Below, piece by piece: positions 30,203-49,411 of a DNA stretch of 64,000 nt. This DNA comes from a bacterium. Its GTDB lineage: Bacteria > DRYD01. Numbering within the stretch: the stretch's first letter is position 1; each line of letters opens with the position of its first letter. The notes under the pieces are model-generated. The model had not been told where the DNA came from. It did no database searches and saw only the letters and a list, made by a program, of their open reading frames with translations. The stretch lies in NCBI GenBank assembly GCA_030549815.1, contig JAUQQQ010000006.1, positions 59,450 through 123,449 on the forward strand, read 5' to 3'. Made by a program: the position numbers and the translations under genes.

Positions 30203-30239
30203 GAGGAAAGATTTTTTTTTTGTAAGATTATATAATTAT

Positions 30240-31481: not shown

Positions 31482-31524
31482 ATGAAAAGGGAAATATAAA
31501 GGATAGTTGAATAAGATAATGGGG

Positions 31525-31596
31525 GGCGACGTAGCCAAGCGGCAAGGCAGGGGCCTGCAAAGCCTCGATTCCCGGGTTCGAATCCCGGCGTCGCCT
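31525..31596 (+). tRNA. tRNA-Cys (GCA); CCA not encoded
   Basis: GGCGACG/CGTCGCC acceptor stem, U73 discriminator, CTGCAAA loop, GGTTCGAATCC. Confidence 0.96.
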
Positions 31597-31607
31597 CAAT
31601 AAATAAC

Positions 31608-32621
31608 ATGCGAAACAAACTTATTATCTCCTTACTCCTTATTATTATCATCTTTCAACAATATATCATATCAACTAATTCTCAGAAAGCTTACTCTGAA
31701 CACGAGGAAAAAGTTATAAGTGCCATAGAGAGGATAAAAAAATCTGTTGTTAGAATTGATGCCTGGTCAAGCGAGGGAAAGCCGAGAGAGTTGGGATCAG
31801 GTGTAGTATTTACTAACCAGGGGCACATTATAACAAATGCTCATGTTATTAAAGATGCTGATAATATAAACGTTACATTTTTTGATGGTAAAAAAAAAGT
31901 AGGAGTTCTGGTAGATTATTCAGACCAGTATGATATTGCTGTTTTAAAAGTTGATCCAGCAGGTTTAAACTTAGTTCCTGCAAAATTCGCTGATGCTGAT
32001 AAACTGAAGCTGGGTCAAACTGTTATAGCAGTGGGTAATCCTTTGAATTTTGGTTGGACGTGCACTGTGGGTATAGTAAGTGGCCTTGATAGAAACATAA
32101 AAGTTGATAACAGAATATATGAAAACCTTATTCAAACTGATGCTGCTATAAACAAAGGTAACTCAGGGGGGGCACTTGTCAATTTAGCAGGGCAAGTCGT
32201 GGGAATAAATACCCTGGTTTATAGAGGTAAAAGTGGAGCAGAAGGAGTTGGTTTTGCTATTACTTCGAATAAAGCAAGATATGTTGCTAATGACATACTT
32301 AAGGGAAGAGTTCTTGTTCCCCAAAGAGCATGGTTGGGTATAGAACCAATAGAAATAACTCCTCAATTGGCAGAAAGATATTCTTTACCTGTAAATTATG
32401 GAATATACGTTAAATCCGTTATACCTGATGGACCTGCTGATAAATATGGAATAATGCCAGGAGATATAATAATTAAATTAGATGATAAAATTGTTGATAG
32501 TATAGCAAAGTTTAATACATTGATAGAATCGAAGAAACCAGGTGATTTTATAAAGGTTACCGTTTATAGTAATAACATAATGAAAGTTATTAATGTGAAG
32601 CTTGATGTAAGAAGTAGGTAA
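31608..32621 (+). CDS. HtrA/DegP-family serine protease with one PDZ domain
   Basis: GSGV, TNAHVI, DIAVLK, QTDAAINKGNSGG, WLGI (PDZ); signal peptide. Confidence 0.95.
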   Translation: MRNKLIISLLLIIIIFQQYIISTNSQKAYSEHEEKVISAIERIKKSVVRIDAWSSEGKPRELGSGVVFTNQGHIITNAHVIKDADNINVTFFDGKKKVGVLVDYSDQYDIAVLKVDPAGLNLVPAKFADADKLKLGQTVIAVGNPLNFGWTCTVGIVSGLDRNIKVDNRIYENLIQTDAAINKGNSGGALVNLAGQVVGINTLVYRGKSGAEGVGFAITSNKARYVANDILKGRVLVPQRAWLGIEPIEITPQLAERYSLPVNYGIYVKSVIPDGPADKYGIMPGDIIIKLDDKIVDSIAKFNTLIESKKPGDFIKVTVYSNNIMKVINVKLDVRSR

Positions 32622-32634
32622 GGAGGTTGAAAAA

Positions 32635-33033
32635 ATGTTAATTCAAATGAATTTGGGATATTTTTTTATATTCTTTGCTACATTTGTTGCTCTTGTTTTC
32701 GCTGTATTCAATCTTATTATTCCTCTTATTATTGCTCCAAAGGATTGGGAGGAAAAGGATGAAAAATTAAAGATTTTCAAAAAATGGAGAACTGTTCCTT
32801 ATGAATCTGGTGAAATAAATCCTATACCCGCAAGATTTCAATATAATATACACTACTATATGTATGCTCTTCTTTTTGTTATATTTGATATTGAGGTTTT
32901 GTTTTTTATTCCATGGATTATAACTTTGCAACAAATTGGATGGATAACTTTAATTGAAATGCTTATCTTTGTTGCTATTCTGTTGGTTGGGCTTTATTAT
33001 GCTGTTGTAAAAGATGCTTTAAGATGGAGGTGA
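32635..33033 (+). CDS. nuoA: NADH-quinone oxidoreductase subunit A
   Basis: PYESG, YYMYALLFVIFDIE, three TMs, ends ALRW. Confidence 0.93.
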   Translation: MLIQMNLGYFFIFFATFVALVFAVFNLIIPLIIAPKDWEEKDEKLKIFKKWRTVPYESGEINPIPARFQYNIHYYMYALLFVIFDIEVLFFIPWIITLQQIGWITLIEMLIFVAILLVGLYYAVVKDALRWR

Positions 33034-33039
33034 TTAGTT

Positions 33040-33636
33040 TTGAATTTTGAAATAAAAAGTAGGTCGGATTTGCCTATACCTTCAAGTAGGATGGAGGTAG
33101 TTCCTAAGCTTAGAAGATTACCTGCTTTAAAGGAATTTTCGATTAGGGACAAAATTCCTGTATATTTAGAATCGTTACCCGGTGGTCAGTTAATAATGAC
33201 CAAAGTGGATGATGTTTTAAAATGGTCAAGGGCGGGATCTTTGTGGTATCTTTTATTTGGTTTAGCCTGTTGTGCTATTGAAATGATGGCTACTGGAGCT
33301 TCAAGGTTTGATTTTGAAAGATTAGGTATGCCTTTTAGGGCTTCTCCAAGGCAAGCTGATTTAATGATATTGGCAGGGACGATTACCTGGAAAATGGCAC
33401 CCAGGGTCAGAGTATTGTATGAGCAAATGCCGCATCCTAAGTATGTTATAGCAATGGGTACTTGCACAATAAGGGGAGGACCGTATGTTTATCAGTGTTA
33501 TTCTGTGCTGCCAGGAGCGGATGTGATAGTTCCTGTTGATGTTTATGTTCCTGGTTGTCCACCAAGACCAGAAGCTTTGCTTCATGGCTGTATGGTCTTA
33601 CAAGAGAAGATAAGAGCAGGAAATTCACCTAAATAA
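33040..33636 (+). CDS. nuoB: NADH-quinone oxidoreductase subunit B
   Basis: [35 protein letters not shown]. Confidence 0.96.
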
Positions 33637-33641
33637 AAATT

Positions 33642-33863
33642 TCATTCTTTCATTATTTCTATTATCTTTTTTCGAGAATTTGCTCCTGCTATTATCTTTA
33701 TGTTTTTTTTTGGGATTTTAAAGTAATCTGATAAAATTTCTATCAATTCTTTATTTGCTTGGTTGTCAATTGGTTGAGATTTTAGTTCGATAATAAAATT
33801 ATTGCCATCCCTTTTTATGCTTTGTTTTTTTCTGTTAGGTTTTACTATTATTGTGATTTTCAT
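33642..33863 (-). CDS. DUF167/YggU family protein
   Basis: VKPN, P.DNQANKELIE.LS, I.IIAG.NSRKK. Confidence 0.88.
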   Translation of the reverse strand: MKITIIVKPNRKKQSIKRDGNNFIIELKSQPIDNQANKELIEILSDYFKIPKKNIKIIAGANSRKKIIEIMKE

Positions 33864-36243
33864 TTGTTTTTATTCCAACTCTATTAAATAGGTATGCAAC
33901 TAAAAGAAGAGACAATCCCATTATAAAACTAAGAATTGCTTTGAAAATGGATGGTATATCATAGAAAATCACAGTAAATGCATTAATTATAGCAAGTAAA
34001 GATATAGCAAAACCTGCTTGTCTCCATATTTTTGAATTAACTTTTATTCCAATGTATATAGCAAAAAATGAATAGATGATCCATATTGTTGATATCACGA
34101 GAGTGTAATATATTTTCCAGTTTGGTAAATTAGAATTATAGAATATGTGTAAAATTTCTTGGCTGAAGCCTATTAAAACAAATAGATTAATAAAAATAAT
34201 CATTGTATCTCCCAATATTTTGTAATCTATTGCCATCTCTTCACTTTTACTTAACATTGTGTTTGATCGATGATATAAAAATAAAGACGCGGCTATAAGA
34301 AAGATAAAACTAATAAACCTTATATTAAAAAATGGATACCATTCTTTTGTGTATTTTAGGTAAAATTCTTCATTAATAGTTGGTATAATTTGTACAATAA
34401 GAAGACTAATAACTATAAATAACAGGCTGATAAAAAACGAAATTCCTGCAGACCTTATAAATATGTCATCTATTTGTTTGTTGTATTTTAAGTAATCGTA
34501 TAATAAAATTGACGCAACCCCAAGTATAGCAAATATTATTGAAATCGAATGTAATATTGCAAACCATGTTTGTTGATCATGTGGAATCTGAAAGATATTT
34601 AGAATAAATGAATAGATGACGGATATAATCAAACCAATTAACCATATTCTAAGATCTCCAATTTTTGTCGATGCAAATATCCTTTTGAATAAAATAATAC
34701 CGTTGATAAAAATTAATAATAGAAAAATTAATAATGAAAAGCTTTTTCCCATAATGTCACTTAATAAAACTATAGAAGTTAAGATTGAAGGGAAAAACCA
34801 TAAAGAAAAAGAGTAAAATAGATATTCCTGCTCCTTTATAATTTTACTTGTAACTAAAAATGTTAAAATAAATGGAAGTGAAAAAATAATAGGTAATACA
34901 ATAAAATAAATACATGAAAGGATGATAATGAAAGTAATATCAGAAAGGAGGTAATCTATTTTTTCAATTGCTTCGAACAATTTTTTTATAAAAGGTATAT
35001 ATTTAGCCCAAATTGTCAATAAACTTCCTACAAAAAATTCCACAAGAAAAAATGACTTACTAAGCTCAACATAATCTATGCTTTTAACTCTTTCATAATT
35101 AAAAGTAATTAAGCAAAAAACTGCAAGAATGATAAAAAATGAGAGTAAAATATTTCCGAAATTCAAACTGCCTATGTTAAAAATGAAATAAAATATAAAC
35201 ACAAAAAATGAAATAATTATGTGAGAAAGTGAGTAATAAAAGAAGTTACCTTTTTTATCTTTTATCAATGAAAATATTATTGCAGTAATTAAAAAATATA
35301 GAATCCACAAGTAATCAAAGTTTGAAATTAATAAGAAAGATAAACCTGTTAAAAAGCCAGTATTTAAACTTAATACTGTCGCTAAATTTTCCAAATTCTC
35401 CCCAATGCTTCTCGATAAAAAATAAATACCAATGTTAGTAAAAAAGAAAAACATAGTATATAATCCTGAATATAAAAATGCGAAATTTTCAACATAATTG
35501 TTAATAATTAGTTGTCCGATTATGTAGAAAATAAAATTGATAATAAAAAGATAATCTTGATCTAAACGAATTATATCTTGTTTTTTTATTATCGAATAAA
35601 TTAATATACTTGCTGAAAAAATGACATAGTTTATTAAGGTATAGGTAAGTAATATTGGTAAAGAGATTTGGTCTTGAAGAAAATTATTAAAAATCTTGTA
35701 AAAAGTAAAGGAAAATGAGATGATGAAAACAAAAAAATTGATGTACCCAATCGTTGAAAATCTCTTGTATGTTGATGTAAAAACTACACTTAAGTTTAGC
35801 AAAGTTATGTATAGAAGTGAAAAATTCGGATTAACTCCAAAAAAGAATATGGGAAAATATCCACCTAAGATTGTAATGAAAGACAAAAATACAGAACTGA
35901 ACTTTATAGTAAAAATAATTAAAGCAAATAAAATTATTGCCTGAAAAACAAAAGCCAATGATAAGTCGATAGTTTTGAAAAATACTGCAACAAAATTGGT
36001 TGTAAGTAGTATAGAAAAACCAATTGAAGTTACTGCTTCGTAGAATATTTTTTGGGTTTTTGATTTGATTAGTCCTCCTGTTGTAATAAATCCTATTCCT
36101 ATTATTGCACTAAGCAGAAATCTTAAGGGTAGTGATATAGCATTCCATATTTCTTTCAAAAAATAACCTGCAGATAGAATAACAAAGAAAACTGCAAGAA
36201 TTAAAAATAGCCTTCCCCCTACTATTTCCTCCCAATTTTTCAC
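33835..36243 (-). CDS. DUF2339-like polytopic membrane protein
   Basis: WEEIVGG..F..L...GYFLK start; very many TMs; PFFN.RF; C-terminal SF..G..LL..AY. Confidence 0.75.
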   Translation of the reverse strand: MKNWEEIVGGRLFLILAVFFVILSAGYFLKEIWNAISLPLRFLLSAIIGIGFITTGGLIKSKTQKIFYEAVTSIGFSILLTTNFVAVFFKTIDLSLAFVFQAIILFALIIFTIKFSSVFLSFITILGGYFPIFFFGVNPNFSLLYITLLNLSVVFTSTYKRFSTIGYINFFVFIISFSFTFYKIFNNFLQDQISLPILLTYTLINYVIFSASILIYSIIKKQDIIRLDQDYLFIINFIFYIIGQLIINNYVENFAFLYSGLYTMFFFFTNIGIYFLSRSIGENLENLATVLSLNTGFLTGLSFLLISNFDYLWILYFLITAIIFSLIKDKKGNFFYYSLSHIIISFFVFIFYFIFNIGSLNFGNILLSFFIILAVFCLITFNYERVKSIDYVELSKSFFLVEFFVGSLLTIWAKYIPFIKKLFEAIEKIDYLLSDITFIIILSCIYFIVLPIIFSLPFILTFLVTSKIIKEQEYLFYSFSLWFFPSILTSIVLLSDIMGKSFSLLIFLLLIFINGIILFKRIFASTKIGDLRIWLIGLIISVIYSFILNIFQIPHDQQTWFAILHSISIIFAILGVASILLYDYLKYNKQIDDIFIRSAGISFFISLLFIVISLLIVQIIPTINEEFYLKYTKEWYPFFNIRFISFIFLIAASLFLYHRSNTMLSKSEEMAIDYKILGDTMIIFINLFVLIGFSQEILHIFYNSNLPNWKIYYTLVISTIWIIYSFFAIYIGIKVNSKIWRQAGFAISLLAIINAFTVIFYDIPSIFKAILSFIMGLSLLLVAYLFNRVGIKTNENHNNSKT

Positions 36244-36291
36244 TTTTCCACCCCCTCTTATTTAAAAATTTAAAAAATTTAGATTAAAAAT

Positions 36292-37749
36292 TTAAAAATT
36301 AGTGTGTGACATTATGGTTCCTGCGATTACAGCAGATGAAAAATTGGCCAAGTTTCCAATTATCAGTGCTCTAAGTCCAAGCTGTGCTATCGTTGGCCTT
36401 ATTTTTGGTTCTAAAGCCCCGATCCCACCTATCTGTATTCCTATGGAGCTAAAATTTGCAAACCCCGCTAAAGCATAGCTTAAGATTATTTTAGATTGCA
36501 TTGATAATACATCTGGATTTTCTGCTATCGTTTTAGCAAAATTACTATAAGCAACAAACTCATTTATTACTATTTTCTGGCTTATAAAGTTTGCTGCTAA
36601 AAAAGCTTCGTGCTTAGGAATACCTAATAGATAAGCTATAGGGTAAGTTATAAACGAAAGTATATCTTGAAAGGTAAATGGCTTAAGAATAAAACTAAAG
36701 GAAAGTAGGTTAATAGATTTAATTGGTGAAATAGTAAACAACCAACTTGTTATATTGAATACTAAATCATTTAGGAGTGCGATTAAACTAATGAAAGCTA
36801 ATAACATTGCGCCTACGTTGAATGCTAAAAACATCCCATCTCTTGCTCCTAAGGTTATGGCTTCAAATAGGTTTGTTCCTGGTTTTTCTAATTTTATTTT
36901 TATATCTCCTCTTGTTACAGGGTCTCCTGTTTCTGGTATCAGGGTTTTAGACATATAAACGGATGCTGTAACTGAAAGGATTATAGCTGTTAGTAAGTGT
37001 CCTGCTATTGTGGGTATGTAGGGACTAATCATAGCAACATAGGCTGCCATGACTCCTCCAGCCATAGTTGCCATTCCTGCTGACATAACTGTGAAAATCT
37101 CGGATCGAGTAAGCAATGCAAGAAATGGTTTTATTATCAATGGTGCTTCAGTTTGACCAACGAATAACTTTGCTGATGCAACGACGGATTCTGCCCCGGA
37201 TGTCCCTAAAACTCTCATCATTATCCAAGCATATGCTTTTATTATTAACTCCATTAAACCAATGTAATAAAAGAAATAAATTAAAGCACCAAAGAATACT
37301 ATCGTAGGTAGAATGATGAATGTAAAATTAATTAGTGGATTTTCTAAATTTCCTGTAACGAAACTTGCAAACAGGAAATTAATTCCTTTTTTAGCATATT
37401 CCATAAGTGCTAAAAATACATCATTTGCTGCTTTAAAAATTCCTACAAAATCTTGAGTTAATAACAATAGCAAAGCAAGGATTAGTTGGAATAAGAAACC
37501 AACGATTAATGTTTTATAATTTATTGCTTTTACATTTTCACTAAGGAAAAATAATGTTGTAAAAATAAAGGTTAACCCGATTATTCCTCTGATGATTTTG
37601 TTTGTTTCAAATATATTTGCTAAAAGAAACAGGATTGATAAGATAGCAAAATATGATAATATTTTTATCCCCATTTGTACAATTTTGTTTTGTAAGAATG
37701 AATTTCCAGTTTCTAATTTTTTTTCTTGTTCTTTATCATTTTCATTCAT
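36292..37749 (-). CDS. nupC: Concentrative nucleoside transporter (NupC/CNT family)
   Basis: LPTIVFF, FVGQTEAP, GMATMAGG, NEFVAY, GFANFSSIGIQIGG. Confidence 0.94.
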   Translation of the reverse strand: MNENDKEQEKKLETGNSFLQNKIVQMGIKILSYFAILSILFLLANIFETNKIIRGIIGLTFIFTTLFFLSENVKAINYKTLIVGFLFQLILALLLLLTQDFVGIFKAANDVFLALMEYAKKGINFLFASFVTGNLENPLINFTFIILPTIVFFGALIYFFYYIGLMELIIKAYAWIMMRVLGTSGAESVVASAKLFVGQTEAPLIIKPFLALLTRSEIFTVMSAGMATMAGGVMAAYVAMISPYIPTIAGHLLTAIILSVTASVYMSKTLIPETGDPVTRGDIKIKLEKPGTNLFEAITLGARDGMFLAFNVGAMLLAFISLIALLNDLVFNITSWLFTISPIKSINLLSFSFILKPFTFQDILSFITYPIAYLLGIPKHEAFLAANFISQKIVINEFVAYSNFAKTIAENPDVLSMQSKIILSYALAGFANFSSIGIQIGGIGALEPKIRPTIAQLGLRALIIGNLANFSSAVIAGTIMSHTNF

Positions 37750-37985
37750 ATTGTTTTTCCCCTTTGAAGTAGTATATGAAATATTTCTTTGATAATTTTT
37801 CTTTTCCCTTCTTAAAAAATTTAATTTTTTATTTTAAAATAAAAAATTTATTTTTTATTTTTACAATTTTTTTACATTTGTGGTGTGTTTTTATTTTGAA
37901 AAATTTTAATAAATAGAATGTTAGTACCAAAAGAAATTGTTGAAAGTAGTAGCAAGAAATATTGTTTATCAGGTAGAGGAAGTAA

Positions 37986-38993
37986 ATGAAAAAGAATGTA
38001 TTGATAACTGGTTCTTGTGGGTTTATCGGGTATTTTGTTTGTTTAGAATTTCTTAAGAATAATTACAGAGTTTTTGGAGTTGATAATCTTAATGATTATT
38101 ATTCCAAATTAATGAAAAACCATAGATTAACATTATTATCTCAAAATAAAGGTTATACTCACCTGTATTTTGATTTATCAGTAAAAAAAGATGTCAAATT
38201 TCTTTTTGATAGATTAAAAAATGAGGAAATAGAATATGTTGTTCATTTGGCTGCCTATCCCGGTGTTCAGTATAGTTTAAAAAATCCTCAGAAATATATT
38301 AAAAACAATATAGTAGCAACTCAAAATCTGTTTGATTTTATTAATAAACACCCTTATTTTAAAAAAAATATTATTTTAGCTTCTACTTCTTCGGTTTATA
38401 CAGGTAATCCTTTACCTTTTAATGAAGATCTTTGTATAAAAGAATTTAGATCACCTTATGCTTATACCAAATTTGCATCTGAAAATATTGCAAGATTTTT
38501 CTACTCAGTTTATGATTTTAATGTTGTTGTATTAAGATACTTTACTGTTTATGGACCTCTTAATCGCCCTGATATGGCAGTTTATAAGTTTTTTGAATCA
38601 ATTTTGAAAGGTAAAACTATTTATGTAAGAGGGAAGGATATTGAAAGAGATTTTACATATGTTGAAGATGCTGCAAAAGCTACTTTCCAAGCAACAAAAT
38701 TGTTTACATTAAATCAAAAGGTTTTTGAGATTATAAATATTGGTAGTGACAACCCTATAAAAGTTCTGGATTTGATTAAGGTTATGTTTGAGGTTGCGAA
38801 GAAGGAAACTAAGGTTGTGGTAGGGGAGTATGCAAGTTTTGAACCCGTCTCTACTTGGGCAAATATTGAAAAGGCAAGAAAGTTACTTAACTTCTCTCCT
38901 TCGATTGATCTGTATCAAAATTTACTAAAAACTTTTCGATCCCTTGAACATTATTGGAATGAAATTGAAGGAAGTTTATTGAGAATACATTAA
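37986..38993 (+). CDS. NAD-dependent nucleotide-sugar epimerase (UDP-glucuronate 4-epimerase-like)
   Basis: TGSCGFIG, DNLNDYY, HLAA, STSSVY, YAYTK, RYFTVYGP..RPDMA, RDFTY. Confidence 0.9.
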   Translation: MKKNVLITGSCGFIGYFVCLEFLKNNYRVFGVDNLNDYYSKLMKNHRLTLLSQNKGYTHLYFDLSVKKDVKFLFDRLKNEEIEYVVHLAAYPGVQYSLKNPQKYIKNNIVATQNLFDFINKHPYFKKNIILASTSSVYTGNPLPFNEDLCIKEFRSPYAYTKFASENIARFFYSVYDFNVVVLRYFTVYGPLNRPDMAVYKFFESILKGKTIYVRGKDIERDFTYVEDAAKATFQATKLFTLNQKVFEIINIGSDNPIKVLDLIKVMFEVAKKETKVVVGEYASFEPVSTWANIEKARKLLNFSPSIDLYQNLLKTFRSLEHYWNEIEGSLLRIH

Positions 38994-39234
38994 TAAATCA
39001 TTAATTTTTATTTGTAAATCTTGGATTTTTATTCTGTTTATTACTTTTTTCTATTGCTAATACAACAGAGCCTTTAATTAGTATTCCAGAAAAATATGAG
39101 GATAATTTCGATGCTTATAAAGATTATAATACTTTGTTTTTTTAGGATTGCAATGAAAATGTGGTTTAGATATACTATGATGCTTTATCGGGGAGGATTG
39201 TTAATTTATTAAGTAAATAGTATGAACAGGTTAG

Positions 39235-39408
39235 TGGTTTTGCTTTAAAAACATAGATGGAGCTGCCTATAGAGCTATCCAATTAATCACAAATAAAGAA
39301 ATGAGAGAAAGAATGGGAGATTTGGTAAGAGAATACGTCAAAAATAGATTCCTCATAACAAGACACCTAAAAGATTATCTCGTGCTTCTTAATAGATTTT
39401 ATGATTAA
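39235..39408 (+). pseudogene. Remnant of the 3' end of a TreT-like GT4 glycosyltransferase
   Basis: NIDGAAYRAIQLITNKEMRERMGDLVREYVKNRFLITRHLKDYL resembles trehalose synthase TreT C-termini; upstream frame is broken (TAG at 39232). Confidence 0.7.
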
Positions 39409-39439
39409 AACAAAAGATAAAAAAAGGATAATTATCTTT

Positions 39440-40597
39440 CTATACAAGTTTATCATAAATCTTCCTTAATATTTTACTTGTTATTCCTTTTTTATCTATC
39501 CATCCTATTGAAGGGTATATTACGAAAGAAAAGATTCTAACTAGGAGTTTAAGGTGTTTTTCCTTGCCCTTTTCTGTACTGCTTTTTACCTTTATCACCT
39601 CTTCCAAGTTTTTATCATTTATTTTTTCTATACCTTCTTCTTTGAGTTTTTTTATAAGCATCTGTTTTTTTTCTTCTGTATTTACGTTTATTTGTAAAAG
39701 ATATTTTAGTGGCACAAAGTGAGGGATAAGAACTTCTCCTATGAATAATTCATTTAATTATTCGGGTTTTAGGCGGATATTATTATTAGTGGTGTCTCCC
39801 CAAGCATCTACTTGGTGTATAATACTATTTGGTATTTCTATAGGTTCAATACTAAAAACAAGATCTCCTATGTCTTTTTCGTTGGATAGCCTGAAGAATA
39901 CATAGTTACTTCCTCCACCGTATTCATCAAATGATCCTATTCCATTACTATTTATTCCTGTTTCTTTTCGTAGTTCTTTTGATATTAATCCTCCAGATTT
40001 GATAATATTTTTGATTATTTCTATTTTTTCAAAAGTATTCTTATTTCCTAATAAGAAATGGTTTAGAAATAATTTTGTTTTATTTTCTTCAATATATTTG
40101 TTTTTATTTTTATCCAATGGTAATAGTTTTATATTGTATTTTAGCAATGTGCTTTGTAGAGTTTGAAAATTTTTTTGGGAATCTCCGATTATTTCAATAA
40201 TTCCCTGTTGAGGTAAGGGTTTTGGATTTTGTTCGAAATACTTTGTTTCTATTTTTTTCATCTTTTCTCCTATAAATTCTTGTATAGATTGTTTTAGTTT
40301 TTCATTTATTGGTAGAACAAGTAGGGTACCTCTTACTGTTTTCCAGAATACGACATGAACCTTTGGGGGTGTGTATTTGTATCCTTCTATAAATGGAGTA
40401 AAATGTAATTCTGTTTTGTTAAAAAGTTCAAGCAGAATATTTTTTATTTTTTCCGTTTCCTTTAGATAATCCTTATTTATTCTAATTATTATTTTATCGT
40501 TAGTTGAATTAATATCGTCAATAATTTTAATATCTTTGAATATATTACTATCTGTCGTATAAATGTTTATTTTTTGATTATTGATTTTTATTTCCAT
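39440..40597 (-). pseudogene. Putative ADP-ribosyltransferase-fold gene interrupted by one in-frame TAA (joins ORFs 39758..40597 and 39440..39715)
   Basis: After the TAA at 39760-39758 the same frame reads LNELFIGEVLIPHF directly into the 91-aa ORF. Motifs: H..., GGLIS..R, GG.NYVFFR, DAWG, GEVLIP. Confidence 0.6.
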
Positions 40598-41321
40598 TTT
40601 GTTTTATTTCCTTATAATCATTGGGAATAGAAAAGAAATCTTCTGGTTCTTCAATTATTTTTATTGTTTCTAATTTTTGTTTATATTTTCCATATTCTGA
40701 AGATATTTCTATTATTATATATCCCTCTTGTATTTTTTGATTGATTTCTTGTAAGAAAGGCACTTTTTGAAATAAATCGAAAATTTTATAGGAATTGGAA
40801 TTGGTTATAGTATTATAACTTTTTAAATCTTCTTCGCTAAATATTTGGTTTTTGTGTGCTATTGTTATATCCATAAAGTTGGTTTGTTGGAATGAAATTT
40901 TGTAATGTGTCGCATTAATATTTTTTTGATTTACTTGGGTTTGAGTTGATGTTTTACTTATTTGTAGATTTTTTAATACTTCAGATATTGTTGGATCTGA
41001 TAGAATTTGATTTGTGTTATTTATCAGGTCATTTATATCTTGTTCTTTTTTTGTGTAGGATTTATTTTTGTGGTCGATTAAAATTGTTAGGATTTTGGGG
41101 TAGTTATTGAAAAACATCAGGTTTGTGTATGTAATTTGGTTTTTATCTAAAACATCTATTCGGGTGGAATTTATGGATGAGTAGAGGTTATAGGATTTTT
41201 CATCAGTTTGATTTCCGTATACCTCTTCCGAAATTTTGATATTTTGGTAAAGAATCTTTTGAGCAAAGATTGTATATAGAATAAAGTATATTACTAACGT
41301 TAAGGCTATTATTTTTTTCAT
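40578..41321 (-). CDS. Secreted protein, DUF4412-like
   Basis: Signal peptide MKKIIAL...IFA; LIDHKNKSY; C-terminal FSIPNDYKEI. Confidence 0.65.
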   Translation of the reverse strand: MKKIIALTLVIYFILYTIFAQKILYQNIKISEEVYGNQTDEKSYNLYSSINSTRIDVLDKNQITYTNLMFFNNYPKILTILIDHKNKSYTKKEQDINDLINNTNQILSDPTISEVLKNLQISKTSTQTQVNQKNINATHYKISFQQTNFMDITIAHKNQIFSEEDLKSYNTITNSNSYKIFDLFQKVPFLQEINQKIQEGYIIIEISSEYGKYKQKLETIKIIEEPEDFFSIPNDYKEIKQNGNKNQ

Positions 41322-41460
41322 TTTTTCCTCCTTTACAATTTTTATTCCTTTATATTATATTTAATCATTTTTTTTATTTTCATTCTTTAGAAAGAAAATT
41401 TTAACATTTTTTTTACAAATTCAAAAGAATTTATTGAGAAATAAAAAAAATTATTAATAA

Positions 41461-42240
41461 ATGAAAGGTTTTGTATTTGCTAATTTTATTTTTATTTTAC
41501 TTTTATTTTCATTTGTTTTTGCTGATAAAAGATTGGAATATATTTTTTATTATGATTACTTTAAACCAAAGGAAAGCTATGGAAATTATAAAACATATGC
41601 AATTAGATATTTTGACAGAATAAGTAAAAAGCAAACTAATTTCTTTGAATTATATTTTCATAATCCTCCTAATAATAAAGAAGGTAATGTTTTTGTTACA
41701 GGAGTGTATAAAGATTGGAGTGAAAGGTTGTTTTCGTATTCATCTATTTCATTTGGAACTAAGGCAGATTATCTACCAAAATTTAGAATAGACCATGAAT
41801 TTTTCTATAAAACAGGGAAAAGTAAAGAATTATTGCTTAGTATTGGAGCGTATTATATTCGATATTATAATAAATACCAAGACTTTACATTTTCATATGG
41901 GATTGTTTATTATTCTAATGGCTGGAATTTTACTTATAAAAAATTAGAAAGTAATATAAATCCAGGCTCAACCAGATCATACACGGATATATATAGTTTG
42001 GGATTGGGGTTTGAAAAAAAATACTGGCTCTACTTAACTTATAATTATGGTAATCAATCTTATATAAGTAATTTTTATTCAATCCCTTTTAGGTTTGATT
42101 CTAAATTTAGCTTCTACCAACTAAATTACAGAACATGGATTAAGGATAACAAAGGAATTATTATAGAATACAATAAATTAAATTTAAAAAATAGTTACTA
42201 TAAGAATGGATTTATGGTAGGAGTATTTTATGAATTTTGA
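41461..42240 (+). CDS. YaiO-family outer-membrane beta-barrel
   Basis: Signal peptide; YDYF...YG, YKDW, YLPK.R.D, NINPG; alternating aromatic strands; terminal YEF. Confidence 0.8.
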   Translation: MKGFVFANFIFILLLFSFVFADKRLEYIFYYDYFKPKESYGNYKTYAIRYFDRISKKQTNFFELYFHNPPNNKEGNVFVTGVYKDWSERLFSYSSISFGTKADYLPKFRIDHEFFYKTGKSKELLLSIGAYYIRYYNKYQDFTFSYGIVYYSNGWNFTYKKLESNINPGSTRSYTDIYSLGLGFEKKYWLYLTYNYGNQSYISNFYSIPFRFDSKFSFYQLNYRTWIKDNKGIIIEYNKLNLKNSYYKNGFMVGVFYEF

Positions 42241-43042
42241 AAAAGAATTTGAATTAATGAAAAAAAATTTAATGAAATATATTTATTATCATCGCTTTGG
42301 TAGGAGACTCCACATTAATTTATTTTTTTCAATTTTAAATTTTTTTATTATTTTAATTCTTGCTTTTTTCCTTGCCTTTTATAAATATGATGAAATCAAT
42401 CATTTTTTTATTAGTTTTTTATCTAAATATTTTGATGAATATGTTATTGAAAATTTATTCATAAATTTTGGATTTTATACTATAAATTTGCATTATTTGA
42501 TAATACTTGGTAGATTTCCAAATAATTTCGAAATTTTAGTTTCACTTCTTTTTATTAGTATTTTGGGATTGCTATTATTTATTTATAGGAGAAAGATATT
42601 AGCATTTTTTATGTGGTATGTTTTCTTTTCTATTCCGTTTATCGTTTCTGTTTTTTATTTTACTTTTTTTAAAAATTATTTTCCTTATACTGTTAGGGAA
42701 TTTTCAATTCTTTATACTTTATTGCAATATGGTATAACTGTCTTTTTTGTATTTATCATTGCTGTTTCCATATCAGTTATAAGCTTTAGTTTTTGGACTA
42801 CATTTACTAACATTATTTTTACATTTTTGCTAATTTTTTATATCTTCTTATTTGGATATTTAAGGTATTTTGTTTTTTTGCTTGTATTAAATAAGATGTC
42901 ATATTTGTATATGGCTAACTTATTTTTTACATTTGGGCCATCACTTGATTTTTTATATTTTACTTCCTTTTATACTTTGTATATTTCTTTACTAATGAAA
43001 AATATTATGAGAAATTCGATGTTATGGAAATTTGTTAGTTAA
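42230..43042 (+). CDS. Polytopic membrane protein of the YaiO/GT2 operon
   Basis: About 6 TM helices; overlaps the barrel gene; FGPSLDFLY motif. Confidence 0.75.
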   Translation: MNFEKEFELMKKNLMKYIYYHRFGRRLHINLFFSILNFFIILILAFFLAFYKYDEINHFFISFLSKYFDEYVIENLFINFGFYTINLHYLIILGRFPNNFEILVSLLFISILGLLLFIYRRKILAFFMWYVFFSIPFIVSVFYFTFFKNYFPYTVREFSILYTLLQYGITVFFVFIIAVSISVISFSFWTTFTNIIFTFLLIFYIFLFGYLRYFVFLLVLNKMSYLYMANLFFTFGPSLDFLYFTSFYTLYISLLMKNIMRNSMLWKFVS

Positions 43043-43045
43043 AAA

Positions 43046-44335
43046 ATGACAGAAATATTAAAATTATTTTTAAAAATATATTTGCTTATTTTAATGATTA
43101 TTCTTACACTATATGCAATAAGGCATTATGTATTTAGTTTTAACAGGTTATTCGGTAAGCAAAGAATGTATTATCAAGACATTATTGATTCAGATTTGCC
43201 CTTTATAAGTGTTTTAATACCAATGCATAACGAGGAAAAAGTTCTTCATACTATTCTTAATTCTCTTATAAATACTGATTACCCTAAAGATAAATTAGAA
43301 ATAATCCCTGTTAATGATCATTCAACGGATAAGACTAAAGAAATATTGGATAATTATGCTTCCAAATACAGTTTTATAAAGCCATTTCATAGATATAGTG
43401 GTGATAGAGGAAAACAGAATGCATTGAATGATGCTGTTGAAGTAGCAAAGGGAGAAATAATAGTAGTTTATGACGCTGACTATATTGTTCCAAAAGGACA
43501 ATTGAAAGATATGATAAAATTTTTTATAGATCCTGAGGTTGCTGCCGTTATGGGTAGGGTAGTGCCTGTTAATTTTGAATCTAATTTTTTGACGATGATG
43601 CTTGACTTAGAAAGATCTGCTGGATATCAGGTTGATCAACAAGCGAGATACAAGCTTGATCTTATTCCTCAGTATGGTGGAACTGTTGGAGCTTTTAGAA
43701 AAGACGTATTTATAAATTTAGGAAAATTTGACCCCAAAGTATTGGCAGAAGACACAGAACTTACTTTTAAGATATTCCTTAATGGATACAAAGTTGCTTA
43801 TGCAAACAGATTAGAATGTTATGAAGAAGCACCAGAGGATTGGTACATAAGAGCAAAACAAGTAAGAAGATGGTCAAGAGGACATAATCAGGTTTTATTC
43901 AAATACTTTATTCCTTTAATTCTTTCTGACAAATTGAGATTAATCCAAAAAATAGACGGTCTGTTTTTACTTTTTGTTTATGCTGTTCCTTTTTTTACTC
44001 TTTTAGGTTTTTTTGCATCTTTGATTTTGTTTTTTCTTGGTGATATGACGATTTCTTCTTATTACTTGTTTTTATTAGCGGTTTTTGCTTATAATTCATA
44101 TGGTAATTTTGCTCCGTTTTTCCAAATTGTTACTGCTGCAATTTTAGATGGAAGAGTATACTCAGTTAGAATTATACCTTTATTTTTCTTTTCTTTTGTT
44201 TTTAATTTGTTTTATACTTCTTTGGGATTTGTTGATGCTGTTATTGATATCATTTTAAAAAGAAAACCAGTTTGGCATAAAACATTAAGGTTTAGGAAAG
44301 ATAAGGATGTAAAAGCAGATGATAATAACAAATAA
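43046..44335 (+). CDS. Processive GT2 glycosyltransferase (PgaC/IcaA/YaiP-like synthase)
   Basis: PMHNEE, DHSTD, GKQNALN, DAD, AEDT, QVRRW; flanking TMs. Confidence 0.93.
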   Translation: MTEILKLFLKIYLLILMIILTLYAIRHYVFSFNRLFGKQRMYYQDIIDSDLPFISVLIPMHNEEKVLHTILNSLINTDYPKDKLEIIPVNDHSTDKTKEILDNYASKYSFIKPFHRYSGDRGKQNALNDAVEVAKGEIIVVYDADYIVPKGQLKDMIKFFIDPEVAAVMGRVVPVNFESNFLTMMLDLERSAGYQVDQQARYKLDLIPQYGGTVGAFRKDVFINLGKFDPKVLAEDTELTFKIFLNGYKVAYANRLECYEEAPEDWYIRAKQVRRWSRGHNQVLFKYFIPLILSDKLRLIQKIDGLFLLFVYAVPFFTLLGFFASLILFFLGDMTISSYYLFLLAVFAYNSYGNFAPFFQIVTAAILDGRVYSVRIIPLFFFSFVFNLFYTSLGFVDAVIDIILKRKPVWHKTLRFRKDKDVKADDNNK

Positions 44336-45356
44336 TCCATTTTTGTTTATTTTTCAATATATTTTTGATAATTTGCATCTTGCTTTGTGGCAGATTGTTT
44401 TAATTTTTGCTATTATTTTTGCTATTCCATTAATTTTTCCTCTTTATGAATTATGGAGAAAAAAAGAAGGAAAACTTAATGTAGATCTATTATATTCACG
44501 GTCTCCTGATTATTGGGGAAAATCTTATCTCAATCTTTTGCTATGTACCCTTTCTAATAATTTAAATAATATAAAATCTTTTGATGACATAAAAAATATC
44601 GAAGCTGATGTCTTATTGGAATTAAATTTTTGTTTTGACAAAGGTAAAGATAAATTTTTTATCACTAAAGATTTTGTAAAAAACATAGAAAAAATAACCA
44701 ATGCCAAGAAAATAAATTTTATTGTCTTAAATACTAACAACTCGGTATTGGATAAATCTTTTGTTTTTGATAAAGAAGTAATTATATTCGGTGATTTGAT
44801 CTTAAATTCTGAGTGTATTTTCAATAGCTTAATAGTTTTGGGAGACCTTTATATCAATTCGAAAACAAGGGTTTTAAAATTTTTACATGTTGAGGGTAAA
44901 GTATTTATTAATAATGAAATTAATATAGGAAATATTTTCTATGCTTCGGATTCAATTAGTGTTCTTGCTCCTGTTGCCTACAAGAGAATTTTCTCTCCAA
45001 GAATTATATCAAAAGAAGATATAGATGAGCATAAATATTTAAATGTGGAAGAAAACAAAAGAATAGAAATATCAGGTAATATGAAAGTTGAAGGTAAATT
45101 AAATATAGAATCAAAAGAGAAATATGTTATAATTGATGGTAATTTGATTTGTAATAGTGATCTTAAATTAGCAGGCAATGTTTGGGCTAAGAATAATGTT
45201 TTTTCTCAAGAAAATATATTTTTGTCAGATGGTGTAATTGTTGGGGTGTCTAATAAAATAAAATCAGTGGTTGCAAGAAAAAAAGTTGTAATTAACGGAA
45301 AAGTTAAAATATATGGTTATGTCCATTCTGAACAAGAATCAATTATCAATCCTTAA
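44319..45356 (+). CDS. Membrane-anchored protein with beta-helix-like (polymer-forming-like) repeats
   Basis: N-terminal TM ending PLYELWRKK; repeated (I/V)xGxL / GN(I/V)x units. Confidence 0.6.
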   Translation: MIITNNPFLFIFQYIFDNLHLALWQIVLIFAIIFAIPLIFPLYELWRKKEGKLNVDLLYSRSPDYWGKSYLNLLLCTLSNNLNNIKSFDDIKNIEADVLLELNFCFDKGKDKFFITKDFVKNIEKITNAKKINFIVLNTNNSVLDKSFVFDKEVIIFGDLILNSECIFNSLIVLGDLYINSKTRVLKFLHVEGKVFINNEINIGNIFYASDSISVLAPVAYKRIFSPRIISKEDIDEHKYLNVEENKRIEISGNMKVEGKLNIESKEKYVIIDGNLICNSDLKLAGNVWAKNNVFSQENIFLSDGVIVGVSNKIKSVVARKKVVINGKVKIYGYVHSEQESIINP

Positions 45357-47226
45357 TTTGTCTGTAAATAGCAATATTATTAAAATTATTAAATACTCTG
45401 TATTTTTTGTTTTTTTTGCTGTTTTAACTTTATTTCTTTTTTTGATCAATAAAAATAGTAATTACTATTTGGAAAAGCAATACTATCCAATTATAATTAT
45501 ATACAATCCAGATTTTTATGAGCTTTACAAGCATAATTTACTTGCTTTTCAATATTCGTTAAAAGAAGAAGGAGTTAACTTTAAGACAGTAGATTCTTAT
45601 TCTTTCTTGTCTAATTACAAACTATACCTGGATGATCCTTATATAAAAGGTCTCATTTTCCCTGATAAAATAAATCAGTTTTTACCATACGATTATTATT
45701 TTATTGTAAAGAGATTTTTGGAATCTGGTGTAAATGTATTTCTTAGTTATGATGTTGGAGTTAAAGATAGATATGATAACTACCTAAAAGAATGTATATT
45801 TTCAGATTTTTTAGGTTTAAATTACATAACATATGAAAAAGAGAAAGAGAATAGTTATTTGGTTGATCAGGTTAAAGTTTTGGATTCAAAATTTTTAGGA
45901 TTTCCTACTTTTAGGCTTGATAATGATTTAATTGTTGGTTATAAGTATCCTAAAAAATTATATTATGTTGCTAATGTGGAAAAATTGGATGAAAAAGGAT
46001 TGGTGGTATTGGCTAAAACTGAAAACTATAATTTACCTTTCATAGCATATAAAAAATATAGTAATGGGATTTTATACTATGTTAATACTCCTGTAGGTTA
46101 TCTAAAAGCTAATTCTGATGATTTAATTTTAAGAGTTAATTTAAGAACTTTTCTTTATAGGATTTGCAAGGTTAGTTCTGTATTAAATATTACCAATTGT
46201 AAACCTTGTATTATAATAAACTATCATTTGGATTCAAGTATTGATTGGAAATCTATTGAATTTTTGTATAGTAATGGGTATTTTACTAAAAATGTAAAAA
46301 ATTCGTTTCATGTAACTGCTGGAGACTTTAGGGATAGGGAGGGGGATGGATTAGGATTTGATGCTTGTGGGAAAGGGAAAAAATATGTTGAGATTATTAA
46401 AAATTATGGAGAAATAGGCTCTCATGGAGGATGGGCTCATAACTACTTTTCTTATACTATCCTTTATGATTCAGAAAAAGTTGATTTGCACAATTTTATA
46501 AAGAATTACATTAAAAAAAATAACGAATGTTTGGAAAGTATAGTTAAATATAAAATAAAAGAATATTCAGCTCCTAATGGTGTTTATCCTCAACCTATTA
46601 GTACTAAAATTTTGGAAGAATTGGAAATGAATTCATATTATTATGTTGGTGATTTAGGTAGCCAGCCTAATCTAACTTTCTATAACAATCAAGTAGTTTC
46701 TAATAAAGTTTTGGCTTTTCCTGTTATTCCTTATAAAACTATTGTCTCATTGGGGGAAATGAAAAAAAGAAATATTCCAGAGGAAGAAGTAGAAAGTTTT
46801 TTAAAATCAATTATTGATTATGTTATAAAAAATGAAACTATTCGTTTGTATTATACTCATCCTTATGATGTTCTGGAATATCCCAATGCCTATAAAGAGT
46901 TCTTAAATTATTTAGAATTAGAGATAAAGCAGGGAAAGATTCAAACACTAACAATGGATGAGTACGCAAAATTTTTCTTTAGATTTTTAAAAACTGAATT
47001 TGATATAAAACAACAACAAAATTCTATTTTTGTTTCATTGTACAATAATGATAGTTTGGAAGGAATAAGTTTTAGAATTAGTAAAGAGGAATTTGGAAGG
47101 CTAAAGATAAACCAAAGATATCTTGAGTCCAAAGGAGTATTTTTTGTAAAAGAAAACGATGATTATTACTATTTTATGATAAATTCAAAGAGGAATTTTG
47201 TTTTAATTATATTACCAAAGATTTAA
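45313..47226 (+). CDS. Polysaccharide deacetylase-domain protein
   Basis: N-terminal TM; NYHLDS, EIGSHGGWAH, YSAPNG, YTHP (NodB-like motifs). Confidence 0.8.
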   Translation: MVMSILNKNQLSILNLSVNSNIIKIIKYSVFFVFFAVLTLFLFLINKNSNYYLEKQYYPIIIIYNPDFYELYKHNLLAFQYSLKEEGVNFKTVDSYSFLSNYKLYLDDPYIKGLIFPDKINQFLPYDYYFIVKRFLESGVNVFLSYDVGVKDRYDNYLKECIFSDFLGLNYITYEKEKENSYLVDQVKVLDSKFLGFPTFRLDNDLIVGYKYPKKLYYVANVEKLDEKGLVVLAKTENYNLPFIAYKKYSNGILYYVNTPVGYLKANSDDLILRVNLRTFLYRICKVSSVLNITNCKPCIIINYHLDSSIDWKSIEFLYSNGYFTKNVKNSFHVTAGDFRDREGDGLGFDACGKGKKYVEIIKNYGEIGSHGGWAHNYFSYTILYDSEKVDLHNFIKNYIKKNNECLESIVKYKIKEYSAPNGVYPQPISTKILEELEMNSYYYVGDLGSQPNLTFYNNQVVSNKVLAFPVIPYKTIVSLGEMKKRNIPEEEVESFLKSIIDYVIKNETIRLYYTHPYDVLEYPNAYKEFLNYLELEIKQGKIQTLTMDEYAKFFFRFLKTEFDIKQQQNSIFVSLYNNDSLEGISFRISKEEFGRLKINQRYLESKGVFFVKENDDYYYFMINSKRNFVLIILPKI

Positions 47227-47528
47227 GAAATCAAATATTTAACAAAAATATCTTATTATATTAAAATGTTTTAGATTTGTTTTTGTTAGGGAGTAATAGA
47301 ATTTTTGTATAAAATAAGAACTTTCTTTTATGTAGCTTTGTTGTGAAAAAGTATAAAAAAGATAAAGATTTTATTTAATATTAGAGCAAATATTAAAAAA
47401 ATGTTCTAAATAAAATTTATAAAATATTTTTAAAAAACTTTATAAAAATATTTATAAAAAAAATTTTATAAAAAGAAGGAAGGAATTTTTGATAAAAATG
47501 TATAAATATAAAATAGGAGGTGATAAAA

Positions 47529-49346
47529 ATGCCAAAAGCAGTAGGAATAGATTTGGGAACCACTAACTCAGTTATAGCTTATAAAGATGCTTCTGGAAAT
47601 GTTGTTGTTATACCCAATGCCGAAGGATCAAGGTTAACACCATCAGTCGTTTCCTTCAAAGATAATGAAATAATCGTTGGAGAGCATGCAAAAAGAAGAG
47701 CAATCCTAAATCCTGAAAACACTGTAATATCAATTAAAAGAAAAATGGGGTCTGATTATAAGGTAAGAATTGAAGGAAAAGAGTATACACCCGAACAAAT
47801 ATCTGCTTTTATTCTACAAAAACTAAAAAGAGACGCAGAAGCATATTTAGGAGAACCAATCCAAGACGCTGTTATTACCGTACCTGCATATTTTAATAAC
47901 CCCCAAAGAGAAGCAACAAAAAACGCAGGAATTATAGCAGGATTTAATGTTTTAAGAATAATTAACGAACCTACAGCAGCAGCACTGGCTTATGGGTTAG
48001 ATAAACAAGATCAAGTACTAACAGTTTTAGTGTTTGACTTAGGAGGAGGAACATTTGACGTATCAGTCTTAGAAATAGGACAAGGAGTTTTCCAAGTTAA
48101 AGCAACTGCAGGAGACAACCACTTGGGTGGAGATGACTGGGACCAAAAAATTATTGACTGGATACTTGAAGAATTCCAAAAAGAACACGGAATAAATTTG
48201 AGAAATGAAAAAGCTTCAATGCAAAGAATTAGAGAAGCAGCAGAAAATGCTAAAAAAGAACTATCTATTAAATTAGAAACTGAAATAAACTTACCATACA
48301 TATATGCCGATGAAAAAGGTCCAAAACATATTCAACTTAAATTAACAAGAGCAAGATTTGAAGAAATGTCTAAGGATCTTATGAAAAGGTTAGAAGAACC
48401 ATGCAGAAGAGTCTTGGATGACCTTAAAATAACTCCAGACAAAATAGATAGAGTTTTACTTGTTGGTGGATCTACTAGAATGCCCATGGTTCAAGATTTT
48501 GTCAGAAAATTCTTTGGAAAAGAGCCTGCAAAAGATATAAATCCTGATGAAGCTGTCGCTATTGGTGCAGCAATCCAAGCATCAATCATTAAAGGAGAAA
48601 CCAAAGATATCGTCTTAGTTGATATTACTCCTCTTTCCTTAGGTGTTGAAGTTATGGGTGGAATGACTCACGTATTGATACCAAGAAATACACCAATACC
48701 AACACAAAAATCTGAAATATTCACAACTGCAGCAGATTTCCAAACTAATGTTGAAGTACACGTCGTGCAAGGTGAAAGAGCAATGGCTAAAGATAATATA
48801 TCATTAGGTAGATTTATACTTTCTGATATACCTCCTGCACCAAGGGGAATACCACAAATTGAAGTAACCTTCGAAATAGATGCAAATGGAATATTAAACG
48901 TAACTGCTAAAGATAAATCCACTGGTAAATCACAAAAGATAACAATAACCGGAGCTACAAAACTATCAAAAGAAGATATAGACAGAATGATCAAAGATGC
49001 ACAGCAGTATGCGGAACAAGATAGAAAATATAGAGAATTAGTTGAAGCAAGAAATAGATTGGATCATATCATTTACTTGTCAGAAAAAGCTCTAAAAGAA
49101 TATCAGAATGCGGATCCAAATTTAAAATCAGAACTAGAAAAAGAAATACAAGAAGCCAAAAACATAATGAATTCTGAAGATATAAGTTTAATAAATAGAC
49201 AAGTTGATAGGTTACAAATGGCATTGTCTAAATTCTCTTCGAGTGCTTACGCTGCTACTGGTGCAGCAGCCGGTGCAACAGCAAGCTCAACTGAAGGACA
49301 ATCTACATCTGAAAATACTCAACAAAACTATAAAATAGAAGATTAA
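47529..49346 (+). CDS. dnaK: Chaperone DnaK
   Basis: [39 protein letters not shown]; ATG at 47529 follows AGGAGGTG. Confidence 0.99.
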
Positions 49347-49353
49347 TGAAAAT

Positions 49354-49380
49354 AGAAGGGGGGCTTTTAGCCCCCCTTCT
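49354..49380. terminator. Intrinsic terminator hairpin, probably bidirectional, between convergent dnaK and gdhA
   Basis: AGAAGGGGGGCT-TTT-AGCCCCCCTTCT, a perfect 12-bp stem. Confidence 0.85.
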
Positions 49381-49411
49381 TGTAAAAATTTCCCAAAAAC
49401 CTAATTTTTTT

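Follow-up and report, generated by a model that had tools for sequence, protein, structure and literature searches.

A gene for a predicted DarT-like ADP-ribosyltransferase, interrupted by a stop codon that is private to one bacterial assembly

DarT is the best-studied of the enzymes that ADP-ribosylate DNA bases. The accessible part of PMC11543638 distinguishes two DarT subfamilies, each defined by its antidote. For the Thermus enzyme, the working residues given in the excerpted text of PMC9967889 are H13, R51, Y71, M78, H119 and E160; E160 is the catalytic glutamate, and R51 is the Arg that polarises NAD+ and abstracts the proton. DarT-related proteins of the ORF28 type are described in baculoviruses, iridoviruses and giant viruses (PMC9503650, in part). 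A C-terminal toxin followed by a small open reading frame (ORF) is the layout described for MuF toxins (excerpts of PMC5576092 and PMC5512222). In the available sections of PMC5512222, PMC9503650 and PMC5576092, the ADP-ribosyltransferase (ART) of polyvalent proteins is of the H-Y-D type (Tox-ART-HYD2), those fused to MuF are Alt/VIP2 and N4-ART, and a DarT-like ART in MuF or polyvalent proteins is not mentioned in those sections. Here we analyse a gene predicted to encode a DarT-like ART in a bacterial DNA stretch of 64,000 nucleotides (nt), called here the window (GTDB lineage DRYD01; GenBank assembly GCA_030549815.1, contig JAUQQQ010000006.1, positions 59,450 to 123,449 of the forward strand). 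The gene lies at window positions 39440-40597 on the minus strand, as do all features below unless stated otherwise. We consider it about 80% probable that it is one 385-residue, three-part gene for a DarT-like ART which is inactivated here by a TAA codon where near-identical populations read GAA.

In the window, the gene appears as two ORFs. An ATG-initiated ORF of 279 residues (39758-40597) closes with TAA at codon 280 (39760-39758), and the next base is T. The frame then remains open for 105 codons, a part that retains every family-invariant residue expected there: 14 sense codons (TTA AAT GAA TTA TTC ATA GGA GAA GTT CTT ATC CCT CAC TTT) lead to a GTG, from which a 91-residue ORF (39440-39715) runs in the same frame. 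When joined, with X in place of the stop, the frame yields 385 residues (P0001). Coordinates and translation agree with the original prediction, which had described two ORFs in one frame, separated by a single TAA and 14 codons and giving about 385 residues on read-through, and the motifs that it had named are all present in the joined protein and in the order given. Of the 43 stop-to-stop frames with at least 200 codons in the window, 32 end in TAA, which is the normal and main stop here, and an alternative genetic code was rejected on this count.

The joined protein was compared with its relatives and the DNA with that of other samples. A word-indexed search returned three unbroken relatives of 383-385 residues, P0002 (98% identity, 385 residues), P0003 (90%) and P0004 (38%). 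An exhaustive profile search added P0005 (383 residues) and P0006 (401 residues), and a stop-free copy of 399 codons is present in the sister-genus genome G008. At codon 280, the six full-length relatives (383-401 residues) have E, K, D, S, E and K, a position that is variable yet sense in 6/6. None of these six ends at the stop, and all are continuous across the break. Positions 39300-41400 were further compared with Logan contigs from four public runs of four studies, which originate from hot-spring, aquatic and unspecified metagenomes and from one coded organism. All four runs have C at plus-strand position 39760, which makes codon 280 GAA (Glu). All four also have C at plus-strand position 39670, giving GAA at codon 310, a residue that is an invariant Glu among the six intact clade members; the window has AAA (Lys-310, 39668-39670), a second private change, downstream of the stop. 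On the coding strand, the two window-private changes are G-to-T (39760) and G-to-A (39670), 90 nt apart. These results demonstrate that the TAA at codon 280 is private to this assembly. Since six intact relatives are colinear across the break and four of four other runs have a sense codon there, the layout of the two ORFs in one frame is more than chance.

The 279-residue product stops eight codons short of Glu-288, the candidate catalytic glutamate, and is without the last strands and the helix of the fold. Because this truncated product lacks the Glu-288 strand as well as the final third of the ART fold, the copy is predicted from its sequence to be enzymatically dead. We interpret it as a recent strain-specific pseudogene, a miscalled base being the less likely cause of the stop.

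Three origins had been put forward for the stop in the original prediction: a nonsense change, a base error and a switch by read-through. A stop that is private to this assembly is compatible with either of the first two. If the TAA were an assembly or base-call error, the organism would keep an intact and active gene. Such an error could account for two private changes of the G-to-T and G-to-A kinds that lie 90 nt apart and occur in none of the four runs, and the low depth (about 4) in some of the runs that bear the locus, which suggests low-abundance populations, also speaks in its favour. However, the change of Glu-310 to Lys at an otherwise invariant residue beyond the stop fits relaxed selection after inactivation, and substitution errors are rare in an assembled consensus; we regard an error as unlikely, though with appreciable weight. 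Programmed read-through of the TAA, as a regulatory device that supplies small amounts of full-length enzyme, would make use of the 105 open codons past the stop, in which all downstream family-invariant residues are retained. This explanation is nevertheless unsupported, since a stop is found at this position in none of the six relatives and none of the four runs and TAA is the main terminator of the organism (32/43). Moreover, the TAA is followed by T, and in E. coli termination is strongest in the context TAAT; beyond this context no recoding signal was sought. Read-through is thus very improbable. Slighter still is the chance that the pieces of 279 and 91 residues form a split pair that reassembles or functions separately. 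The relative in genome G007, which has the ART domain and the tail without the N-terminal domain, shows that the locus is modular. However, the 91-residue ORF begins past Glu-288, so that neither piece contains this residue and neither can hold the active site; no ribosome-binding motif was seen at a useful distance from its GTG (the nearest GGAG lies about 20 nt upstream), and no relative is split at this point (0/6). The 91-residue ORF (39440-39715), which starts past Glu-288 where relatives are continuous, is therefore the tail of the broken gene and no separate gene.

The joined protein can be divided into three parts. The exhaustive search returned 72 proteins at E ≤ 0.001, and nearly all of them match residues of about 165-340 only. 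These proteins reach 3,479 residues in length and mostly carry the matching stretch at their C-terminus; such matches define a domain. Residues 165-345 (39563-40105), which are cut at codon 280, correspond to the predicted DarT-like ART domain. The preceding N-terminal domain (residues 1-164, 40106-40597) occurs in the close clade only, as it is covered by P0002, P0005 and P0006 alone among the 72 hits. It has a weak Pfam match to DUF4846 (E 0.01-0.05) and no usable Atlas match. The C-terminal tail (residues 346-385 and the TAG stop at 39440-39442; 39440-39562) is conserved in the clade (KI.K.IYD..) and modelled as a low-confidence helix.

The conservation of the domain was examined in an alignment (A3) of 55 of the 68 domain stretches, the 13 others being omitted for brevity only. 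Three residues are invariant (55/55): Asp-224 (GAT, 39926-39928), Gly-267 of the DAWG motif (GGA, 39797-39799) and Glu-288 (GAA, 39734-39736). The last lies eight codons past the stop, in agreement with the original prediction, which had placed a candidate catalytic glutamate just after it. Position 210, in GGLISKELR, is Arg in 46 and Lys in 9 of the 55 sequences (Arg-210 in the window; CGA, 39968-39970), and Phe-234 is kept in 52/55. On the first strand (FLNH), His-180 (CAT, 40058-40060) is His in 41/55, and on the NYVFFR strand Tyr-232 (TAT, 39902-39904) is Tyr in 37 and Phe in 4 of the 55.

The original prediction had recognised in this order of motifs the pattern of DarT/DUF4433-type ARTs, and profile and structure comparisons of the domain support it. 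The window protein matches Pfam DarT (PF14487) with 24.1 bits for a cut-off of 22.5 (E 3.5e-5). The match covers residues 287-326, aligned to profile positions 152-191 of 201, and coincides exactly with the part that follows the stop. P0002, P0003 and the window protein all score 24.1-24.5 bits over 40-49 of the 201 profile positions, and 14 of the 55 family domains match Pfam DarT at E ≤ 0.1. For profile comparison, 11 true DarT sequences were gathered from related and other genomes; hhalign aligned the family with them at 87% probability (E 3.9e-6, 36 columns) and placed Glu-288 on the invariant DarT glutamate. A forced global hhalign, of low confidence, set FLNH on YxxTH, His on His, and IIKSGGLIS on SIL..GILS. 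Profile searches of PDB sequences (alignments A2 and A3) gave chance-level matches, none of them DarT (best E 0.044). None of 11 proteins was matched within the domain by PADLOC models, and the same 0/11 was obtained with PHROGs, which recognised MuF parts only.

An AlphaFold2 (AF2) model of the domain computed with A3 had a predicted local distance difference test score (pLDDT) of 89.9 and a predicted template modelling score (pTM) of 0.88. Foldseek against the PDB placed DarT at ranks 1-7, and all four hits with E ≤ 0.001 were DarT. With VIA-align, 149 residues were aligned to 8baq (E. coli C7 DarT1) at Z 12.3 and a root-mean-square deviation (rmsd) of 2.9, and six further DarT entries had Z 10.1-11.9; identity to DarT in the structural alignments was 12-17%. 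The next matches were Tpt1 (Z 7.0), SopF (6.9), OspC3 (6.1) and cholera toxin (4.9). A search independent of Foldseek, over 48,161 PDB representative chains, found Z ≥ 8 for four chains, all of them DarT (Z 10.2-12.3), and below these nearly all matches also had the ART fold. On the model, residues 165-345 are thus predicted to be an ART domain with DarT as the nearest relative. The ART part of the earlier description, an undescribed ART effector, is upheld by this predicted fold, whereas the word effector is unproven for the chromosomal branch to which the window gene belongs.

Of the described systems, DarT (PF14487/DUF4433, the toxin of DarTG1 and DarTG2) is by far the closest in fold (Z 10.2-12.3). 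The order of elements is shared, with a His strand, G-L-(I/L)-S, an aromatic YxF strand and a Glu strand followed by a helix; the sizes are similar (about 180 residues in the window protein for about 200 in DarT), and the invariant glutamates align. His-180, Arg/Lys-210 and Tyr-232 are conserved in the same order as in DarT, His and Tyr being plausible equivalents only. By contrast with DarT, the window gene has no adjacent macrodomain or NADAR antitoxin, its product carries an extra N-terminal domain and a tail, and the fusion partner in relatives from its family is a phage MuF protein or a PLD domain, not DarG. The related genomes G001, G006, G007 and G008 have true DarT as separate genes. 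Tpt1/KptA RNA 2'-phosphotransferase and the effectors SopF, OspC3 and CopC share the ART core (next-best Z 5.0-7.0) and are clearly below DarT, with fewer aligned residues or a higher rmsd and no sequence signal. Among predicted viral structures (BFVD), the best matches were uncharacterised giant-virus proteins, iridovirus 422L, baculovirus ORF30/32 and phage minor capsid proteins. The iridovirus 6 422L and betabaculovirus ORF30/ORF32 models, with Foldseek probabilities of 0.98-1.00, provide the likeness to the ORF28-type proteins; these differ in that they belong to eukaryotic viruses, and the matches have TM-scores of about 0.5 at 14-18% identity.

Several observations weigh against the reading of the locus as an inactivated gene for a DarT-like ART. 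The comparison with other samples was made with contigs and not raw reads, none of them tied to the source sample, and it leaves error and mutation undistinguished. Sequence similarity to DarT is limited to about 40 residues; P0004 lies under the Pfam DarT cut-off (21.9 bits for 22.5), and the score against the NCBIfam DarT equivalog NF048013 (toxin_DarT) is 12.8 bits for a cut-off of 150. The ART fold rests on a prediction, and a counterpart of the essential R51 of DarT is not established, Arg-210 being no established equivalent of R51 in the Thermus enzyme. The AlphaFold model of the whole protein, computed with three sequences, was poor (pLDDT 45.3 overall, 25-46 in the N-terminal domain), uninformative on the N-terminal domain, and not used. 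Finally, the neighbourhoods of the relatives reveal no conserved partner gene for the chromosomal branch.

Some of these points bear on whether the intact protein would transfer ADP-ribose at all. A protein with the ART fold could instead be an NAD+ hydrolase or a binding module, as certain ART-fold families are NADases or pseudo-enzymes, and both the identity to DarT of only 12-17% and the unproven R51 equivalent are compatible with this. Yet an Asp, a Gly and a Glu are invariant and an Arg/Lys is kept over 55 diverse sequences, which points to a conserved active site, and the arrangement of a toxin-like C-terminal cargo followed by small ORFs in distant relatives matches enzymatic toxins. 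We therefore consider a non-transferase improbable. As a DarT-like transferase, the intact protein would use NAD+ to ADP-ribosylate a target, by analogy most likely a nucleic acid: the nearest structures are all DNA-modifying DarT enzymes, other relatives are fused to PLD, and MuF-cargo relatives are followed by candidate immunity genes. On the main reading, the single gene comprises an orphan N-terminal domain (1-164), a DarT-like ART (165-345) and a short tail (346-385), and the N-terminal domain would be the obvious candidate for control of the intact form within the same protein.

Beyond these chromosomal genes, the wider domain family was examined. Among 25 longer homologues, 20 carry MuF (PF04233) and none PF14487; the sources call them "head morphogenesis", "minor capsid" or "hypothetical". 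In further scans, Phage_Mu_F was found in 6/28 and PLD in 2/28 family proteins, and MuF in five of six long ORFs. Pseudanabaena phage Pan1 (ON968452.1; L032 2805-5955) provides an example: Pan1_15, annotated as a head morphogenesis protein of 927 residues, has MuF at 153-277 and the DarT-like domain at its end, and a hypothetical gene of 110 residues lies 35 nt past it. Viral contigs were scanned with A6, an alignment of four closer sequences. At 24/24 loci from IMG/VR the domain ends 1-22 residues from the end of the ORF, these ORFs having 679 to more than 1,500 codons, many of them cut at the locus edge. A small ORF stands behind the long ORF at all 24 loci, starting between -49 and +56 nt from its stop; one is probably spurious. 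The small downstream ORFs fall into eight unrelated groups, and none of ten, including Pan1_16, has a Pfam match. From its sequence layout, this arrangement behind the phage-branch domain resembles that of toxin-immunity pairs, and the small ORFs are candidate immunity genes. The distant members thus share with MuF polymorphic toxins and polyvalent proteins a position at the extreme C-terminus of MuF proteins with small ORFs behind them, whereas the window gene has no MuF domain, no phage context and no small immunity-type gene downstream; the Pfam scan found MuF neither in the window protein nor in its clade. Members of the family also differ from ART-PolyVal/Tox-ART-HYD2 (PF18760) in having an invariant Glu and not the Asp of H-Y-D, and PF18760 was unmatched by the 55 domains at E ≤ 0.1; in P0087 it is present as a separate, extra domain. 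A pairing of a kinase, matched as HipA_C, with the DarT-like domain occurs in some of the scanned MuF proteins.

Two other architectures were observed. P0010 (978 residues) and P0012 (834 residues) have, behind the DarT-like domain, tandem PLD nuclease-type domains with matches to DrmC models of the DISARM defence system. P0007 (1064 residues) and P0008 (1111 residues) have two DarT-like domains each, at about 385-567 and 847-1031, and no Pfam match. In a quick tree, the window clade forms one group (support 100) and its neighbours are weakly supported; the second copies of P0007 and P0008 are nearest to it, again with weak support. Two scans of metagenome contigs returned no relative, and a scan of genome contigs returned the G007 contig alone.

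The locus thus points to a third, very divergent DarT-like family, whose members are labelled only "hypothetical" or "head morphogenesis" in the sources consulted. Three settings are observed for the domain: in hot-spring bacteria it stands alone with a new N-terminal domain, elsewhere it is joined to PLD nuclease-type domains, and in phage head proteins it is the terminal cargo. In the literature searched, no paper on this family was found; the Ct_MAD profile and domain tables in the supplements of PMC5576092 may bear on its novelty. If active, the family would extend what is known of ADP-ribosylation on nucleic acids and would supply a thermophile-derived version for structural work. The broken copy of the window itself adds little beyond pointing to the family. 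A bolder proposal, which we regard as doubtful, is that the hot-spring clade represents a third, self-contained DarT-like nucleic-acid ADP-ribosyltransferase system, related to MuF cargo and working without macrodomain or NADAR. The orphan N-terminal domain would restrain the enzyme as a fused sensor or inhibitor, perhaps in phage defence, and the private stop would be a trace left by selection against a toxin with a high cost.

The start of the ART-like gene overlaps by 20 nt (40578-40597) an upstream ORF of 247 residues (40578-41321) with a signal-peptide-like N-terminus (MKKIIALTLVIYFILYTIFAQ, judged by eye). This ORF has no Pfam, NCBIfam or PADLOC match; by Atlas features it resembles DUF4412 proteins (score 0.94, a lead only). 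The original prediction had coupled the ART-like gene to this secreted-type protein. The overlap is confirmed by the ORF coordinates, but a conserved link is not: relatives of the upstream ORF in G005 and G006 (24% identity) have no ART gene alongside, and the ART relatives in G008 and G007 are preceded by flagellar rod genes and followed by a DUF4126 membrane protein, flanks which these two share and in which the upstream secreted-type gene is missing. Because the two genes are not neighbours in relatives, the overlap is local and not a conserved partnership. Compared with the four runs, the upstream gene outside the overlap (40598-41321) has 20 differences in 724 nt and the ART-like gene (39440-40597) has 4 in 1158 nt, of which two are window-private.

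Further neighbouring genes encode, to one side, a nucleoside transporter, a DUF2339 membrane protein and an epimerase and, to the other, a YaiO-type outer-membrane barrel and a glycosyltransferase. Domain scans of the neighbouring genes detected no macrodomain and no NADAR, which extends the earlier statement that no DarG macrodomain is adjacent. Genome G000 has a single macrodomain gene, on another contig, and NADAR was not found in G000, G007 or G008. Between the ART-like gene and the convergent epimerase gene, the minus strand has no ORF of at least 40 residues. The final 17 nt of the ART-like gene are shared with a 29-codon ORF (39367-39456), which would encode a hydrophobic peptide (MINLYRKIIILFLSFVLIIKSIKKHEIIF) and may be due to chance in this AT-rich DNA. 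The scan for promoters and terminators was uninformative for the same AT-richness, with 23 promoter-like sites for 17.3 expected and no terminators.

Regarding its distribution, the ART-like gene was found in two of three sister-genus genomes and not in six genomes of the same genus, which are 71-89% complete. A DNA search of five same-genus genomes gave no match to 38950-41440 and showed the flanking genes scattered over other contigs, so that synteny could not define an insertion site. The G007 copy (L003 1498-2240) encodes the ART domain and tail in 214 residues. Directly upstream of it are 2.8 copies of a 36-nt tandem repeat, and the 390 nt before are full of stops in all frames. Canonical DarT genes occur elsewhere in genomes of the same family (L007 in G007, L008 in G006, L009 in G008 and L010 in G001), and none was found in the window's own genome at E ≤ 1e-5. 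Some of these DarT frames have 357-406 codons, which suggests fusion to DarG, and the canonical DarT of G007 and that of G008 each have a macrodomain match immediately next to them.

Two further features of the window are recorded here. Divergent from the ART-like gene, a plus-strand group at 41461-47226 encodes the YaiO-family barrel, a polytopic membrane protein, a family-2 glycosyltransferase and two unannotated ORFs, and looks like an exopolysaccharide-export locus. A tRNA-Cys gene (GCA; 31525-31597, plus strand) is the only tRNA gene in 30000-50000 and lies away from the ART-like gene.

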